Shown in pieces: positions 31,728-62,396 of a DNA stretch of 64,000 bases; positions within the stretch are counted from its first letter, which is position 1, and each line of letters opens with the position of its first letter. This stretch comes from an uncultured delta proteobacterium. Its GTDB lineage: Bacteria; Desulfobacterota; Binatia; UBA9968. The DNA lies in NCBI GenBank assembly GCA_963816145.1, contig CAWFJP010000003.1, forward strand, positions 32,001-96,000, read 5' to 3'. The notes under the pieces were generated by a model. That model made no database searches, was not told the DNA's origin, and saw nothing but the letters and a program-made list of their open reading frames with translations. Position numbers and translations under genes: made by a program.

Positions 31728-34700
31728 TTGAAAGATTTGTTCCATCCGTTAATTCAGCGCTGGTTCACCGAGCGCTTTCACGAGCCGACGCCAGCGCAGC
31801 TCCAGGGTTGGGAGTCGATCGCCGCGGGGCAGGCGACGTTGATCGCGGCGCCGACCGGTTCCGGCAAGACTCTCGCGGCATTTCTTTGGTCCATCGACCG
31901 TTTGGTCAAGCAGGCGCTGTGCGGCGCGCTGGGTGAGCGCACCAGCGTCGTCTATGTCTCGCCTCTCAAAGCTCTTGGCAACGATATCGCCAAGAACCTA
32001 CAGGCGCCGCTGGCGGAGATCTATCAACTAGCCGGACGCGAGGGGATACTCTTGCCGTCAATCCGGGTGGCGGTGCGCTCGGGCGACACACCGGCGCAGG
32101 AGCGCCAGGCGATGGTGCGCCGGCCGCCGCATATTCTCATTACCACGCCCGAATCGCTGTATATTCTGCTCACCTCGGCGCGGAGCCGGGAGTTCCTGCG
32201 CTCGTGCGAAACTCTGATCCTCGATGAAATTCACGCCATCGCCCAGGACAAGCGCGGCGCCCACCTGGCGCTGTCCATCGAACGCTTGGCGGCCTTGGCC
32301 GAGTCGGCCGCTCCAGCGCATCGGTTTGAGCGCGACGCAAAAACCGATCGATGAAGTGGCGCGGCTCTTGGTCGGCACCAAACGGATTCGCCGTGACGGT
32401 ACGCCCGACTGTGCCATCGTCGATGTCGGTCATAAGCGCGAGATGGAACTGCGCATCGAAGTGCCGGATGAGGAGCTCGGGCCGATTATTCGCCAGGATA
32501 TCTGGGCGGCGGTTTACGACAAGCTGGTCGAACAGATCCAACTCCACCGCACAACTTTGATTTTTGTCAACACCCGGCGCCTGGTTGAGCGGGTGTCGCA
32601 TCAGCTGAGCGAACGCTTGGGCGAGGGTAAGGTTGGCGCGCACCATGGCAGTTTGTCGCGCAAGACCAGGCTGGAGGTCGAAGAGAAGCTCAAGTCTGGC
32701 CTCTATCCGGTGGTAGTTGCCACCGCTTCCCTCGAGCTCGGCATCGACATCGGCCACGTCGATGTCGTTTGCCATATCGGCGCGCCGCGCAATCTGGCGG
32801 TGTTGTTACAGCGGATCGGTCGTTCAGGCCACTGGATGGGCGCCATCCCCAAGGGGCTGTTCTATCCCTTGACGCGCGACGATCTCATGCAGTCGATTGC
32901 CGCGATCCGAGCGGTGCGGCAGGGCCAACTGGATAAGCTCAACCTGACTTACAAGCCGCTCGATATCTTGGCGCAGCAGATGGTGGCGACGGTGGCGAGT
33001 TCGGAGAATTTAACCACAAAGAGCACAAAAAGCACAAAAAAATTGCCCCCACTTTCATCCTCCCCCGCAGTGCGGGGGAGGAAAGAGGAGGGGGATGGCT
33101 TTTTAGTCAACTTCGATAAGCTCAACATGTTCGCTAGGTCGCAACACGCAACGAAGACTTCAGAAGAGGGCATTGCTGAAGAGGATCTTTGGCAACTCAT
33201 GCGTAGCGCTTATCCGTATCGCGATCTCTCCCGAAAAGAGTTCGAGGAAGTCTTGGACATGCTCTGCGAGGGAGTTGAGACTCGGCGCAGCCGGCGCAGC
33301 GCCTATATTCACCGCGATCGCATCCATGGCATGTTGCGGCCGCGGCACGGCGCGCGCTTGACGGCGATCACCAACGGCGGGGCGATCCCCGATACCGCCG
33401 ATTACAACGTTGTCGAGTTCGCCACCGAGACCTTCGTCGGCACGGTGAACGAGGATTTCGCCATCGAGAGTTTGGCCGGCGATATTTTTCTCTTAGGCAA
33501 TCGCTCCTGGCGCATCCGGCGCGTCGGTTCAGGCAAGGTCTGGGTCGACGACGCTCAAGGACTGCCGCCGAGTATTCCCTTTTGGATGGGCGAGGCGCCG
33601 GCGCGCACGGTGGAGTTGTCTCAGGCTGTATCCGACCTGCGCGCTGCGGTGGCGGAGCGGGTGGGCGACCGCACCGCAGCGGTGGCATGGCTTCTAGGCG
33701 AAGTCACGATGGCGCCGGCGGCGGCCGAGCAAATCGTCAGCTATGTTGCCGATACCGTCGCAGTCCTCGGCACCGTGCCAGGGCAGGATAAGATTATCGC
33801 CGAGCGTTTTTTCGACGAAGCCGGCGGTATGCAGTTGATTCTTCATTCGCCCTGGGGCGGTCGCGTCAACCGCGCCTGGGGCTTGGCGCTGCGCAAACGT
33901 TTTTGCGTGAGTTTCGACCGTGAGCTGCAAGCGGCGGCCACCGACGACGGCATTTGTATTTCGCTGGTCGAGCAGCATTCGTTTCCGTTAACCGATGTGT
34001 TCGCCATGCTCAAGCCGGCGATCCTCGAATACAATCTTACCCAAGCGGCGCTCGCCTCGCCGATGTTCACCAACCGCTGGCGCTGGAACGCCACCCGGGC
34101 CCTGGCGCTCAAGCGTCATAACGGCGGCAAAAAAGTTCCGGTAGCGATCCAGCGCATGCGCGCCGAAGATTTGCTCGCCGCGGTGTTTCCCGAACAAGTG
34201 ATGTGCCAAGACAACCGCAGCGGTTCTGTGGAAATCCCGGACCACCCCTTGGTGCGCGAAACCATGGGCGATTGCCTGCATGAAGCGATGGACATCGACG
34301 GCCTTTCGGCGATCCTCGCCAAGATCGACAGCGGCGCAATCCAGACGCTCGCCATCGATACGCCGGCGCCCTCGCCGATGGCCCATGAAATTTTGAACGC
34401 CAACCCCTACGCGTTTCTCGACGATGCACCGTTGGAAGAGCGCCGCGCCCGGGCGGTGTCGTTACGTCGCGTCGATCCCTGGCTGGGGCGCGAGTTCGGC
34501 CAGCTCGATCCCCAAGCGATCGCGGAAGTCTGCCGACAAGCCTGGCCCGAACCGCGCAATGCCGACGAGCTGCATGATTTGCTGTTGGGCGTTTGTCTGT
34601 TGCCGGTCGATTGGCGGCGCGATTGGCATTCCCTGGCCGCCGCGTTGATCGATACCGGCCGCGCGACCGTTGCGGCATGGCAAAATTCACAGGGCGTGCA

Positions 34701-56627: not shown

Positions 56628-57716
56628 TCAAGGGGCGGGGTGACGAGTGGTGACAATCGGCCTCGTACTCACCGTCGCGCCGAATTCGCTGCCGTCGTGA
56701 TGCACCGACAACTTCGTGCCCGGTGTCCAGAAATCTTTGTTGACATAACCCAGGGCGATCGGTTTTTGGAGTGCAATCGAAGCCACCGAACTGGTGATTT
56801 GACCTATTTCCTTACCCCCCGCGCTGAGTTTGTCACCGGGACTTGCCGGCGTATCGCCTTCAACCAGCAGGCCGCAGAGCTTCTTATTGACATGACCGCG
56901 CGAACGGATGCGCTCGACGACCTCCTGGCCGAGATAACAGCCTTTATTGAAGCTTACGGCGTCGTCCAGAGCGACTTCGAGCAGCAAATAGTCTTCGGAA
57001 AAATCCACTCCATAGCGGGGGATGCCGGCTTCGACGCGCAAGGTATTCTGTGCCTGCGCGCCGACCCATGCTGCGCCCCGGTCGATCAACCGTTGGGCGA
57101 ATGCCGAAAGCTGTGCAGTTTGGACGATTAGATCGAAGCCATCGTAGCCGCTGCGGTCGGCGCGCACGACGCAGACCGGAGCGCCGTCGAACTGCACCAT
57201 ACCATGGTGATCGGGCTCTGCTGGCAGATCGGCATTACCAAAGACTTTCTCCAGGATCGCTCGCGCCCGCGGCCCCTGGAGCGACAGCATCTTCCACTGC
57301 TCATTGGGGTCGTGGATCTCCACCTCATCGGCGACCAGGTAGCGATTGAGATGAGTCAAAATCTTTTCTTTGAGCGGTTCCCAAAAATCCAAATAGAAAG
57401 AGTTCAACGAGCACAACACTCGGACATCGGCAATCACTTTGCCCTGCTGGGTGAGGATCGTCGCCTGCTGGCCGTCGAACATCTTCAGCGGTCGCAGATC
57501 GTTGGAGAGCATGCCTTGAAGATAAGACAGCCGATCGTCGCCTGTGAACTGAAGCATGGCGCGATTGGCGAGATCGAACAGACCAGCAAACTTGCCGACC
57601 GCTTGGTATTCGCGCGCCGGATCGCCGAAATGGTCCGGCAAGAGCCAACCATCTTGTTCGATGAATGCAGCCCCTTGGCGTTGCTGCAAATCGGAAAGGG
57701 TCGATCGCTTTGCCAT
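56628..57716 (-). CDS. Folate-binding protein, YgfZ/GcvT family
   Basis: GcvT fold with the YgfZ signature KGCYLGQE. Confidence 0.9.
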   Translation of the reverse strand: MAKRSTLSDLQQRQGAAFIEQDGWLLPDHFGDPAREYQAVGKFAGLFDLANRAMLQFTGDDRLSYLQGMLSNDLRPLKMFDGQQATILTQQGKVIADVRVLCSLNSFYLDFWEPLKEKILTHLNRYLVADEVEIHDPNEQWKMLSLQGPRARAILEKVFGNADLPAEPDHHGMVQFDGAPVCVVRADRSGYDGFDLIVQTAQLSAFAQRLIDRGAAWVGAQAQNTLRVEAGIPRYGVDFSEDYLLLEVALDDAVSFNKGCYLGQEVVERIRSRGHVNKKLCGLLVEGDTPASPGDKLSAGGKEIGQITSSVASIALQKPIALGYVNKDFWTPGTKLSVHHDGSEFGATVSTRPIVTTRHPAP

Positions 57717-57834
57717 TGCTGCGAATATATACCGTCAAGCGCTGCCGTTGACAATGCCAATTGCTGGCTTGCGATCATTGATAGATAGATTAGCGGTGTG
57801 ATAGACAGACAGTATCTTATTACGGAGGTGCTTC

Positions 57835-58302
57835 ATGGCAGGACTCGAAGGGCAAAAAGCGCCGGCGTTCACTCTCGCGGGGAGCGACGGCAAACAGCAT
57901 TCGCTGGCTGAGTACGCCGGCAAAAACGTTATTTTGTGGTTTTATCCGAAAGACGACACACCTGGCTGAACCAAGGAAGCGTGCGGGTTCCGCGACGCTA
58001 TCGATACTGTAACCAAAGCCAATACCGTGGTTGTCGGTGTCAGCCCGGATGGCATCGATTCGCACAATCAATTCATCAGCAAGTTTAACCTGCCCTTTGT
58101 TCTGCTCGCCGACCAGCAAAAAGAGACTATGAAGGCCTACGGTGCTTGGGGACCGCGCAAGAACGCCCAAGGCGAAGTATCGGAAGGGACGATCCGTTCG
58201 ACGGCATTGATCGGCGCCGACGGCACGATTAAGAAACACTGGATTCCCGTTACCGATGCCGGCGCTCACCCGGCGGAAGTTTTGGAATTCTTAAATAAAT
58301 AG
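57835..58302 (+). CDS. bcp: Selenocysteine-containing peroxiredoxin (BCP/PrxQ family), 155 aa, Sec45
   Basis: GGAGGTG RBS and ATG 57835 give MAGLEGQKAPAFTL...WFYPKDDTPG-[TGA 57967-57969]-TKEACGFRD..., in frame with the track ORF 58027..58302. The TGA sits at the peroxidatic Cys of TPGCTxEAC. Confidence 0.92.
57978..57999 (+). promoter_or_regulatory. Candidate bacterial SECIS hairpin 1
   Basis: AGCGT-GCGG-GTT-CCGC-(G)-ACGCT stem-loop; a G-initiated apical loop lies about 16-17 nt 3' of the UGA. Confidence 0.7.
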
Positions 58303-58316
58303 ATTTTCACTCCATC

Positions 58317-58361
58317 GCTCAGGGAGCGCTCCGTTCAATTCGCCGGTGGCGCTCCCTGAGC
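58317..58361. terminator. 13-bp GC-rich hairpin between the Sec-Prx and LysR genes
   Basis: GCTCAGGGAGCGC / GCGCTCCCTGAGC; there is no U-tract, so it may be a stability element rather than a terminator. Confidence 0.45.
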
Positions 58362-58380
58362 TACCCGCTTCACCTATTCC

Positions 58381-59289
58381 ATGGCCAAAGTCAAAGCCGA
58401 TCTTGATCTCCACAAACTAGAAATTTTCTACTGGGTGGCTGAACAGAAGAGTTTTTCTCAAGCTGCCGAATTGTTATCTCTGCGCCAGCCAACCATAAGT
58501 GCTCACGTGCAAGAACTCGAGAAGGCGGTGGGCGGCAAGCTGCTCTACCGCATGCCGGGGAAAGTCAGTCTGACGCCGCTCGGTCTCATGCTCGCCGAAC
58601 GGGCGAAGAATCTGCTCAGTTTCAAGCGCGAAACCATCGCCGCTGTGGAACAGTTTCACGGCACGCTTAGCGGCGAACTTTGGGTCGGTGGTAGCAGCAT
58701 TCCCGGTGAATATCTTTTGCCGCAGAAATTGGGCGAGTTCACCAAGAAGTATCCGAAGGTGAAACCGATCCTGCGCATCGGCGATTCCGCCGGTATCATT
58801 ACCGAACTGATCGAAGGGAAAGTCGAGATCGGCTTTGTCGGCTTTAAAGGCGACGATGGCCGGCTCACCTTCGAGAAGATCTGGGACGATGAAATGGTCG
58901 TGGCGGTACCCAAAGGTCACCCCTGGACCAGGCGTAAAGCCATCGAAGTCGCCGATCTGCGCAATGAAAAATTCATCTCACGCGAACATGGCTCGGGAAC
59001 TCTGGACTCCTTACGCCAATTGCTAGCCAAGCACAAACCACCCGGCGAGCTTTTGAACATCACCATGGAACTCGGTAGCACAGAGGCGGTCAAGGAAGCC
59101 CTGATGGCCGGTTACGGCTTTTCGATCTTATCGCGCATTTCGATCCAACACGAGTTAGCCGACGGCAACATCGTCGAGGTGCCCATCCGCGGCCTCAAGA
59201 TGGAGCGCGGCTTCTATCAAGTATTGCACAGCCGCCGGCCGCTCCATCCCATCGCGCAGACCTTTCGCGTCTTCCTCAAGACACAATAA
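58381..59289 (+). CDS. LysR-type regulator, CysL-like (resembles selenium-metabolism-associated LysR proteins)
   Basis: HTH SFSQAAELLSLRQPTISAHV; CysL-type motifs SSIPGEYLLP, GDS, REHGSGT, ELGSTEAVK. Confidence 0.88.
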   Translation: MAKVKADLDLHKLEIFYWVAEQKSFSQAAELLSLRQPTISAHVQELEKAVGGKLLYRMPGKVSLTPLGLMLAERAKNLLSFKRETIAAVEQFHGTLSGELWVGGSSIPGEYLLPQKLGEFTKKYPKVKPILRIGDSAGIITELIEGKVEIGFVGFKGDDGRLTFEKIWDDEMVVAVPKGHPWTRRKAIEVADLRNEKFISREHGSGTLDSLRQLLAKHKPPGELLNITMELGSTEAVKEALMAGYGFSILSRISIQHELADGNIVEVPIRGLKMERGFYQVLHSRRPLHPIAQTFRVFLKTQ

Positions 59290-59387: not shown

Positions 59388-60746
59388 ATGGCACTGTCGC
59401 TGAAGAGCCGGGGACCGAGCGCCGCCGAGCAGTTGCGCGAGAGATTTGCCGCCGCTTGGGCTCGGTCAGATCAATTGTTCGCCATCGTGGGCGACGCGCA
59501 AACGTTGGCCAAGCCGATCGTTTGGCGCCATCCGTTTATTTTCTACATTGGCCATTTGCCGGCGTTCTCTTGGAACCAAGTGTGCGGCGGGATTCTCCAT
59601 TGGCCGTCGTTCAACAGCTATTTCGACGATCTGTTCTGCCGCGGCATCGACCCCGATGTCGACACTGGTGAATGCCATTGGCATCCCGAAGTACCGGACC
59701 AGTGGCCCACACTCGCAGAGACTGTTTATTATCGTGATCGGGTTCGCAGGGCGCTGCTCGATTCTACCGATGCGCTTGGCTATTGCCCTTCCACCGACCT
59801 GCTGGCTCAAGGCGGGCGCGTCTTCGAACTGATCTTGGAGCATGAGTACATGCACCAAGAGACCTTGATGTACATGATGCAACAGATGACGTCCGACGCT
59901 AAGCTCCGGCCGCGCAATTTTCCGCGCTATGCATTCGGACGAGCCGCAGCGAGGGAGACCGTACGGATTCCCGCGGGGAAAGCCCGTTTGGGGACGCGCT
60001 TCGATGAACTAACCTTCGGTTGGGATAATGAATTTTCCGAGATCACTGTGGACGTGGCTGGGTTCAAGATCGACAGTTTGCCGGTGACCAACGGCGAATT
60101 CTTTGAATTCGTCACTGTCGGCGCCTATGCCGATCCGCGCTATTGGCGCCCCGAGGACTGGCAGTGGAAGGAGCTGGAGCACAAACAGCATCCAACTTGC
60201 TGGCTCAAACAAACCGATTGCTGGTTTTATCGCGCCATGTTCGACATTTTGCCCCTCGAACAAGTGGCGAGCTGGCCGGTGTATGTGAGCCTGGCCGAAG
60301 CTCGCGCCTTTGCGAAGTGGCGCGGCCAACGTTTGCCGACGGAAGCCGAATATCAGCGCGCGGCCTATTACGGGCCCAGTGAACGTGAATCGACCTATCC
60401 GTGGGGTGATGGTGAGCCGAGTCCGCGCCACGGCAACTTTGACTTTGCCGCGTGGTCGGCCCATCCGGTCGGATCTCATCCCGCCGGAGCGAGCCGTTGG
60501 GGGGTGCAGGAGCTCATCGGCAATGGCTGGGAGCTGACCGACACACCGTTCGCGCCGCTGCCCGGATTCACGCCATACATGACGACCTATCCGGACTATT
60601 CGAAAGATTTTTTCGACGGCAAGCACTTTGTCGTCAAGGGCGCGTCATGGGCCACAGACAAGCAACTTTTGCGGCCAAGCTTTCGTAACTGGTACCAAGC
60701 CCACTATCCTTATGTGTTCGCCAAATTTCGCTGTGTCAGTGATTGA
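59388..60746 (+). CDS. Non-heme iron sulfoxide synthase family protein (DinB_2 + FGE-sulfatase; EgtB/Egt1/OvoA/SenA superfamily)
   Basis: RHPFIFYIGH (His56), RGIDPDVD, EHEYMHQE (His152, His156), FGWDNE, VTNGEF, RLPTEAE, GNGWE, FRNWYQ..YPY; GGAGG RBS. Confidence 0.9.
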   Translation: MALSLKSRGPSAAEQLRERFAAAWARSDQLFAIVGDAQTLAKPIVWRHPFIFYIGHLPAFSWNQVCGGILHWPSFNSYFDDLFCRGIDPDVDTGECHWHPEVPDQWPTLAETVYYRDRVRRALLDSTDALGYCPSTDLLAQGGRVFELILEHEYMHQETLMYMMQQMTSDAKLRPRNFPRYAFGRAAARETVRIPAGKARLGTRFDELTFGWDNEFSEITVDVAGFKIDSLPVTNGEFFEFVTVGAYADPRYWRPEDWQWKELEHKQHPTCWLKQTDCWFYRAMFDILPLEQVASWPVYVSLAEARAFAKWRGQRLPTEAEYQRAAYYGPSERESTYPWGDGEPSPRHGNFDFAAWSAHPVGSHPAGASRWGVQELIGNGWELTDTPFAPLPGFTPYMTTYPDYSKDFFDGKHFVVKGASWATDKQLLRPSFRNWYQAHYPYVFAKFRCVSD

Positions 60747-61931: not shown

Positions 61932-62396
61932 ATGGCGAGTTTAGAAGGCAAGAAAGCGCCGGCGTTTAGCCTTGAGGGCAACGATGGCAAGAACCATTCG
62001 TTGGAAGATTACAAAGGTAAAACGGTGGTGATGTTTTTCTATCCAAAAGACAGCACCCCTGGCTGAACTAAGGAAGCTTGCGGGTTCCGTGATTTGAACC
62101 CCTCACTCAAAAAGAAAAATGTTGTCGTTCTTGGCGTCAGCAAAGACACCATCGAGTCGCACAACAAGTTTGCCGAGAAGTATCAGTTGCCCTACGTGCT
62201 GCTGTCGGACCCCAAAACCGAAGTCATGAAAAAATACAGCGCGTTCGGCAAGAAGATGATGTATGGCAAGGAAGTGCAGGGAACGATTCGCTCGACCGTT
62301 GTCATCGGCCCTAAAGGCGATGTAATCAAACATTGGCCGACGGTCAAGAAGGCCGAGGAACATCCGAAAGAAGTGCTGGCGTTCCTCAATGGCTAA
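61932..62396 (+). CDS. bcp: Second selenocysteine-containing peroxiredoxin (BCP/PrxQ family), 154 aa, Sec45
   Basis: AAGGAGGT RBS and ATG 61932 give [14 protein letters not shown]...[10 protein letters not shown]-[TGA 62064-62066]-TKEACGFRD..., in frame with the track ORF 62094..62396. Confidence 0.92.
62074..62095 (+). promoter_or_regulatory. Candidate bacterial SECIS hairpin 2
   Basis: TTGCGG-GTT-CCGTGA stem (two G.U pairs) at the same distance from UGA as hairpin 1; the core TGCGGGTTCCG is identical in both. Confidence 0.65.

Follow-up and report, generated by a model that had tools for sequence, protein, structure and literature searches.

We analysed a 64,000-nucleotide (nt) window of DNA from an uncultured delta proteobacterium (positions 32,001 to 96,000 of contig CAWFJP010000003.1, assembly GCA_963816145.1; G000:C3:32001-96000 in our numbering, from an assembly of 7.8 Mb in 31 contigs). 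The gene prxQ at 57835-58302 of this window is, with high confidence, predicted to be an intact, expressed-type gene for a BCP/PrxQ peroxiredoxin whose peroxidatic residue is selenocysteine (Sec, U), encoded by UGA at codon 45. When this TGA is read as U, the frame gives 155 residues, with other stops absent up to the TAG at 58300-58302, and contains the motif YPKDDTPG-U-TKEAC. Under translation table 11, the open reading frame (ORF) list holds 57835..57969 (44 aa) and 58027..58302 (91 aa, GTG start) and nothing longer, and these two pieces match consecutive parts of the Pfam AhpC-TSA profile (positions 2-40 and 62-123 of 124). A preliminary description of this DNA had reported a strong ribosome-binding site and an ATG at 57835, a TGA at 57967 in place of the peroxidatic Cys, an uninterrupted frame to a TAG, and the failure of ORF calling to recover the whole gene. 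All of this was borne out: a GGAGG stands before the ATG (Table 1), the TGA completes a PxxxTxxU motif and is aligned with Cys in homologues, and the earlier observation of a hidden frame is confirmed. The frame is beyond chance because the TGA column recurs in 29 of 30 loci from relatives and in 76 of 79 named loci (taken from the best 80 of 135 relatives).

Conservation of the TGA was assessed in 60 related genomes, searched in six frames. Of the 30 genomes of the same genus, 21 have an orthologue that is at least 79% identical and contains exactly one TGA; with a partial copy truncated by the end of its contig and two split copies, the total is 24. The split orthologues each consist of two overlapping pieces (G003:C31:63052-63517 and G027:C27:73486-73952) and may represent a frameshift or an assembly indel. 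A match of 42-48% identity, again with one TGA, occurs in 18 of the 19 genomes of a sister family. The codon aligned to codon 45 is TGA in 29 of the 30 loci that were fetched (L014-L043, including L025 from a genome flagged unpublished) and TGC in L037, a paralogue in its Cys form. Among the named loci, with one genome per species, 79 could be mapped to codon 45, giving 76 TGA, 2 TGC and 1 TGT, a ratio that says nothing on the general frequency of Sec forms because the best 80 of 135 relatives were kept. Within this set, submitters' labels for the TGA forms include Syntrophobacter, delta proteobacterium, Binatia, Planctomycetales, Pyrinomonadaceae, Chloracidobacterium, Latescibacterota, Gemmatimonadetes, Vulcanimicrobiota, Baltobacteraceae, Dormiibacterota and Polyangia. 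The preliminary description had proposed a search for Cys/Sec pairs at this site, and had regarded stops at random positions in orthologues as the mark of a pseudogene. Cys codons (TGC or TGT) are indeed aligned there, with full-length Cys-form homologues of up to 77-79% identity (P0003-P0005, from a protein database of called genes only), and the TGA is found only at the codon aligned with the peroxidatic Cys. Two database proteins carry a residue other than Cys in the Sec column: the Trp of P0012 (73% identical) is probably a TGA translated with a TGA=Trp code, and the Arg of P0002 (85% identical) could reflect either a CGA variant or an error, its contig being 659 nt long.

Selection on the gene was measured in 17 pairwise comparisons with same-genus copies, in which synonymous divergence ranges from ~0.3 to saturation. 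The summed ratio of nonsynonymous to synonymous differences (pN/pS) is 0.101 ahead of the TGA (codons 2-44) and 0.151 behind it (codons 46-155). The part beyond the apparent stop is therefore still translated, to judge from the latter value, and these ratios point to purifying selection on both sides of the TGA.

The full 155-aa protein, of thioredoxin fold, matches Pfam AhpC-TSA (PF00578) over residues 6-134 (E-value 4.9e-36; profile positions 2-123 of 124). When NCBIfam models are ranked, PrxQ (NF053650, 151.8 bits) and BCP (NF006960, 117.1 bits) stand well ahead of Tpx (31.3 bits) and AhpC (21.8 bits), and all 14 matches in a PDB sequence search are BCP/PrxQ-type or near it, the closest solved relatives being Bcp1 (3drn, 9.4e-27), 5enu, a Xanthomonas BCP and PrxQ. 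An AlphaFold model (predicted local distance difference test score, pLDDT, 93.1) has its best structural matches among BCP/PrxQ structures, with template modelling (TM) scores of 0.85-0.93, and places both U45 and C50 in the helix 43-54, with U45 near the helix start. The protein is thus predicted to belong to the BCP/PrxQ subfamily, nearer to it than to the AhpC/Prx1, Tpx or Prx6 types. The motif P38-x3-T42-x2-U45 (T42-P-G-U45) is present, and P38, T42 and R121 show no variation across the 202 aligned rows, Sec and Cys forms together; R121 is presumably the catalytic Arg, as in peroxiredoxins generally.

A resolving Cys five residues downstream of the Sec had also been proposed. The residue itself, C50, stands in the sequence, and the spacing of U45 and C50 is what we take to be the CP-x4-CR arrangement of E. 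coli BCP; its resolving role is presumed from Cys-type BCP/PrxQ proteins. Of the 81 Sec-form rows, 57 retain a Cys at +5, as do all 121 rows labelled Cys; this contrast may reflect sampling, as all 121 are close relatives of the query. The other 24 Sec rows have Ser, Thr, Arg, Gln or Asn instead, and such Sec forms would have to work either with a different resolving partner or by a one-residue mechanism. Many of the loci L093-L123 (labelled Vulcanimicrobiota and Dormiibacterota), as well as L041-L043, hold a Sec PrxQ of this kind.

Decoding of UGA as Sec requires dedicated machinery, and the preliminary description had made its reading depend on selA, selB and tRNA-Sec. All three were found, together with selD, within ~15 kb of contig C30. 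The tRNA-Sec at G000:C30:576761 scores 74.2 bits against Rfam RF01852 (cut-off 47) and is called tRNA-SeC with anticodon tca by ARAGORN; selA was identified by profile search (534 bits), selB by its SelB-specific winged-helix (wing) domain (73 bits) in a 653-aa frame, and selD (G000:C30:565877-566803), which itself contains one in-frame TGA, at 380 bits. From this gene set the organism is predicted to be able to decode UGA as Sec. TGA is not reassigned genome-wide: among the 1920 open frames with 400 codons or more, 742 terminate in TGA (TAA 620, TAG 558). A further AhpC/TSA-like frame in the same genome (G000:C1:301858-302286) is 39% identical to the window protein and has one TGA, and many more AhpC/TSA-like matches with one TGA occur in the relatives' genomes. 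Together with the TGA in selD, these many one-TGA matches suggest a selenoprotein-rich lineage.

A bacterial selenocysteine insertion sequence (SECIS) is expected directly after the UGA, within the coding sequence. A stem-loop begins there, 9 nt past the TGA, and its apical loop GUU (57987-57989), which contains a G, lies 17 nt past the UGA. By the distance and G-containing-loop rules that we assume for bacterial SECIS elements, the hairpin is of SECIS type. It is also the minimum-energy fold of the 42 nt from the UGA (-13.2 kcal/mol, z-score -1.69). In the Cys paralogue L037, the residues EACGFRD are encoded with other codons and without such a hairpin (z-score +0.57). Across 19 same-genus copies, synonymous heterozygosity is 0.014 in codons 49-55 against 0.445 over 106 other codons, namely the degenerate codons for conserved residues elsewhere in prxQ. 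Codons 49-55 cover exactly the hairpin and are the lowest of 68 seven-codon windows in this measure, and six of the nine codons that never vary in the whole gene fall within them.

Pairing was assessed in a gap-free alignment of 72 distinct TGA-form sequences, with the window's own structure as the structure tested. It pairs 72.2% of cells, compared with 26-56% after sliding the 3' partner 1 to 3 columns, a control that favours the structure because one of the aligned sequences was its source. In the lower stem (13-16 with 29-32), 61-65 of the 72 sequences pair. Pair 15-30, which joins two codon wobble positions, covaries, being GC in 38, AU in 14, GU in 12 and unpaired in 8. Cells altered on both sides number 35, against 18.2 in shuffles, and none of 500 shuffles reaches 35; kinship among the sequences inflates such covariation counts. 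In the sister family this place is taken by another hairpin, in which L042 shows a U-A to C-G exchange, and the consensus fold of the two clades together therefore retains only 4 pairs. Distant clades appear to use other hairpin registers. These results are consistent with the SECIS-type element that the preliminary description suggested looking for, found where expected and constrained at the RNA level.

The TGA was also compared with independent sequence data. Contigs covering 57600-58500 come from two DNA runs (X2, X8) and two RNA-library runs (X15, X20) of four studies; all four runs cover 57967-57969, and no other letter is listed there. The preliminary description had named TGC or TGT at 57967 as a finding against it, and none appears in these contigs. 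One RNA-library contig of 475 nt spans 57830-58304 including the TGA, with five other letters and no gap. Contigs of this kind cannot show transcript ends or expression level.

The 155-aa selenoenzyme of the preliminary description is thus supported, as a prediction from sequence, by the Sec machinery, the conserved TGA, purifying selection and the constrained hairpin. Several points, in addition to the advantage of the tested structure in the slide control, weigh against it. The folding energy of the hairpin is by itself unremarkable: an equally good fold arises in 14 of 200 shuffled versions of the 42 nt, and with 64 nt the z-score is 0.04, so that folding energy alone does not single out the element. 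Two of five whole-structure measures are not above shuffles: 488 of 500 shuffles have as many pairs changed on both sides, and 496 of 500 have as many further pair types. The upper stem (19-25) pairs in only 36 of 72 sequences and is clade-specific, not common across phyla, and conservation of the lower stem partly follows from the conserved amino acids E-A-C..R-D-A. An Rfam scan of 57800-58400 with E-values up to 10 returned no SECIS family and three unrelated matches at chance level; in our view, this says nothing against the hairpin. At the protein level, six of the 30 same-genus genomes have only distant AhpC/TSA matches, and the scores for PrxQ (151.8 bits against a cut-off of 260) and BCP (117.1 against 140) fall below the NCBIfam equivalog cut-offs, which speaks against these two orthologue groups and not against the subfamily because these models are narrow equivalogs. 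Expression is only hinted at by the RNA-library contigs, because such libraries can hold DNA, and selenium in the protein is predicted from sequence and not observed directly.

The presence of an in-frame TGA could also be explained by inactivation of the gene, with a nonsense mutation turning the TGC or TGT of the catalytic Cys codon into TGA. TGA is one base away from either codon, table 11 splits the gene into pieces of 44 and 91 aa, and public collections hold only short pieces of it. Such a pseudogene is nevertheless extremely improbable: the same TGA stands in 29 of 30 loci and in 76 of 79 among the best 80 of 135 relatives, down to ~42% identity; pN/pS past the TGA is 0.151, with no further stops or frameshifts; and none of the 202 rows departs from the catalytic Arg121, which is encoded past the TGA. 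A sequencing or assembly error hiding a true TGC or TGT is the least credible explanation, with a probability close to nil. We found no point in its favour, and it is opposed by the agreement of two DNA and two RNA-library runs from four studies and by the TGA in more than 70 independent assemblies (from the best 80 of 135 relatives).

It could also be that the UGA is read mainly as something other than Sec, either as Cys from a mis-acylated tRNA-Sec at low selenium or as Trp by near-cognate reading, and that the product is an ordinary thiol or an inactive PrxQ. The inserted residue is a prediction from the DNA, and the database proteins P0002 and P0012 have Arg and Trp in this column, the latter most likely through gene calling with TGA=Trp. 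Taken as a whole, this explanation is nonetheless very unlikely, since the genome has a complete Sec pathway and frequently uses TGA as a true stop, a hairpin at SECIS distance is under RNA-level constraint, and the site is that of a redox-active Cys, the classic position of Cys/Sec exchange.

If the UGA is decoded as Sec, SelB carrying Sec-tRNA(Sec) would bind the hairpin and deliver Sec at the UGA instead of allowing termination. In peroxiredoxins, a peroxidatic residue attacks the peroxide and a resolving Cys then forms a bond with it. By this established chemistry, the enzyme would reduce H2O2 or organic hydroperoxides, with U45 attacking the peroxide and becoming a selenenic acid, which would combine with C50 to an intramolecular selenenylsulfide. 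Thioredoxin could then reduce the U45-C50 bond; the genome encodes a thioredoxin reductase (420 bits) and three thioredoxins above cut-off.

The relationship of Sec and Cys forms was examined in a quick, midpoint-rooted FastTree phylogeny of 202 rows (81 Sec, 121 labelled Cys), which leaves out L070 and L072 (short), L071 (unmapped), P0002 (Arg), P0119 (fragment) and proteins outside 140-200 aa. The window gene lies in an all-Sec clade of 29 rows, nested in a 79-row group, starred on the tree, with 50 Cys forms. A separate group of 50 rows, 49 Sec and one Cys, contains sequences from Acidobacteriota, Vulcanimicrobiota, Gemmatimonadota and the sister family. The tree requires a minimum of five label changes, at least three of them forced by well-supported branches, and the count of five rests on one wrong label, since row P0012, labelled Cys, has Trp in the Sec column. 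Because the tree is quick and midpoint-rooted, no direction of change is claimed. The pattern fits the repeated Cys-to-Sec conversions published for Prx (PMC1794560).

The features of the region are collected in Table 1. An antisense ORF (57820..58269) overlapping prxQ has no match to any Pfam family, and a promoter and terminator scan of 57600-58500 gave none of either. At the inverted repeat downstream of prxQ, the terminator scan found no T-run terminator; the repeat may be a transcript-end hairpin or a regulator site. The LysR regulator that follows scores 267.8 bits against NCBIfam NF040786 (cut-off 250). The protein encoded next scores below cut-off with all three related models: 258.8 bits for the N-terminal part of OvoA, 224.5 for EgtB and 220.3 for SenA (selenoneine synthase). 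An EgtD above cut-off is encoded elsewhere in the genome (G000:C29:302506-303396). The order gcvT, prxQ, lysR, egtB-like is kept in 29 of 31 closely related loci. At distant Sec-PrxQ loci, no LysR or EgtB-like neighbour was found at an E-value of 1e-10, so that the link to LysR is limited to the close clade.

Table 1 Features of prxQ and its surroundings (positions in the 64,000-nt window; a dot marks a feature without strand).
Feature	Position	Strand	Remarks
gcvT	56628-57716	-	upstream of prxQ
Shine-Dalgarno-like GGAGG	57824..57828	+	6 nt ahead of the ATG; read from sequence
Predicted Sec-containing BCP/PrxQ peroxiredoxin coding sequence (prxQ)	57835..58302	+	complete, 155 aa; U45, C50; stop TAG
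TGA read as Sec	57967..57969	+	codon 45, peroxidatic position
SECIS-like hairpin within the coding sequence	57978..57999	+	9 pairs, one bulged G on the 3' side
Cys50 codon	57982..57984	+	presumed resolving Cys (U-x4-C), role putative
Perfect 13-nt inverted repeat	58317..58361	.	19 nt between arms; in the 78-nt gap between prxQ stop and lysR start
LysR regulator, 'selenium metabolism-associated'	58381..59289	+	NCBIfam NF040786
Stand-alone DinB_2 + FGE-sulfatase protein	59388-60746	+	EgtB/OvoA/SenA-like
DUF427 protein, then PhnD-like binding protein			between the EgtB-like gene and the second PrxQ
Second BCP/PrxQ (P0122)	61932-62396	+	TGA at codon 45, motif U-TKEA-C

The second PrxQ is 58% identical to the first. 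Within the genus, six of its copies have TGA and nine have TGC or TGT; the Sec copies have hairpins just past the TGA, in two variants, and the Cys copies have no consistent one. On the tree it is the lone Sec row in a starred Cys clade of 37 rows. In one genome (G019:C30:49726-50185) the paralogue is in two pieces, with a TAA. The region from gcvT to the second PrxQ could be pictured as a genus-conserved, selenium-responsive redox island, comprising gcvT on the minus strand, the Sec-PrxQ, LysR, the EgtB/OvoA/SenA-like protein, the DUF427 and PhnD-like proteins and the second Sec-PrxQ, in which LysR would sense selenium or peroxide and the EgtB-like protein, as a sulfoxide (or selenoxide) synthase, would make a thio- or seleno-histidine working with both Sec peroxidases. 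As a joint reading this is rather doubtful. If it were true, the second PrxQ would be a live Cys-to-Sec conversion, with a SECIS element born inside a coding sequence. The paralogue in any case offers a nearby within-genus Sec/Cys contrast for the study of SECIS origin.

The main value of the finding is the correction of annotation, as gene callers routinely halve prxQ. The genome's own public record holds only the 91-aa tail (P0137; NCBI, Logan, ENA). A public cluster of 157 sequences contains prxQ fragments, the 15 members listed being 67-97 aa long and some fragment members being named 'peroxiredoxin Q/BCP', and none of the NCBIfam selenoprotein models captures the window protein. Because the databases hold fragments, the catalytic half of a widespread antioxidant enzyme is missing from them. 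Surveys of selenium use in soil and wetland phyla that are built on called genes will miss Sec-PrxQ; the phylum labels of affected loci, among the best 80 of 135 relatives, include Acidobacteriota, Vulcanimicrobiota, Dormiibacterota and Gemmatimonadota. The gene adds a well-supported case of BCP/PrxQ type to the known Sec-peroxiredoxins and changes no concept of the field.

That Sec replaces the catalytic Cys in some bacterial peroxiredoxins was given as known in the preliminary description, and the literature agrees: in the portions of the papers available to us, 'Prx (pfam00578, TxxU)' is listed as a bacterial selenoprotein family since 2005-2008 (PMC1794560, PMC2398784, PMC13188914). The same portions report 12 Prx selenoproteins and five Cys-to-Sec events, with one peroxiredoxin in Syntrophobacter fumaroxidans (Zhang 2006, PMC1794560), 253 Sec-Prx in the Global Ocean Sampling (GOS) survey of ocean metagenomes (PMC2398784), and Prx as a known family in a 2026 review (PMC13188914). 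Since TxxU Sec-peroxiredoxins have long been listed there, the finding is less novel than first rated. A literature search over titles and the beginnings of abstracts found no paper explicitly describing a selenoprotein of BCP/PrxQ type, which is not proof of absence.

The window protein has in common with the Prx (PF00578, TxxU) family the Pfam family, the PxxxTxxU motif, a predicted peroxidatic Sec and many Cys homologues. In the parts of the family papers at hand, the family is defined by motif and Pfam domain, BCP/PrxQ is not split from AhpC/Prx1, and 'BCP' occurs zero times. With its PF00578 domain and a predicted Sec in T-x-x-U (T42-P-G-U45), the window protein falls under this definition; the published family, as far as those parts describe it, is broad enough to include it, by comparison of definitions and not of sequence lists. 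PrxU of Eubacterium acidaminophilum is the experimental precedent for a Sec-peroxiredoxin (Sohling et al. 2001, as cited in the available part of PMC13188914). Like the window protein as predicted, this peroxiredoxin carries Sec as its peroxidatic residue; it belongs to another subfamily, as the window protein scores 38.1 bits against the PrxU model NF040737 (cut-off 270), a profile of 233 positions compared with 155 aa. The recently named thiol peroxidase Prx-SUH (NF045827) is likewise an AhpC/TSA-like selenoprotein, but its motif, in the part of the review available, is CxxU (PMC13188914), and the window protein reaches only 22.4 bits with its model (cut-off 298). The closest likeness in fold is to Cys-type BCP/PrxQ proteins (Sulfolobus solfataricus Bcp1, 3drn; Xanthomonas campestris PrxQ, 5iiz; Burkholderia, 5enu), which share the fold (TM 0.85-0.93), 33-43% identity and the same Pro, Thr and Arg with the window protein, and have Cys where it has its predicted Sec. 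Xanthomonas PrxQ differs further in its distant resolving Cys (its structure titles name C48S and C84S mutants), where the window protein has C50.

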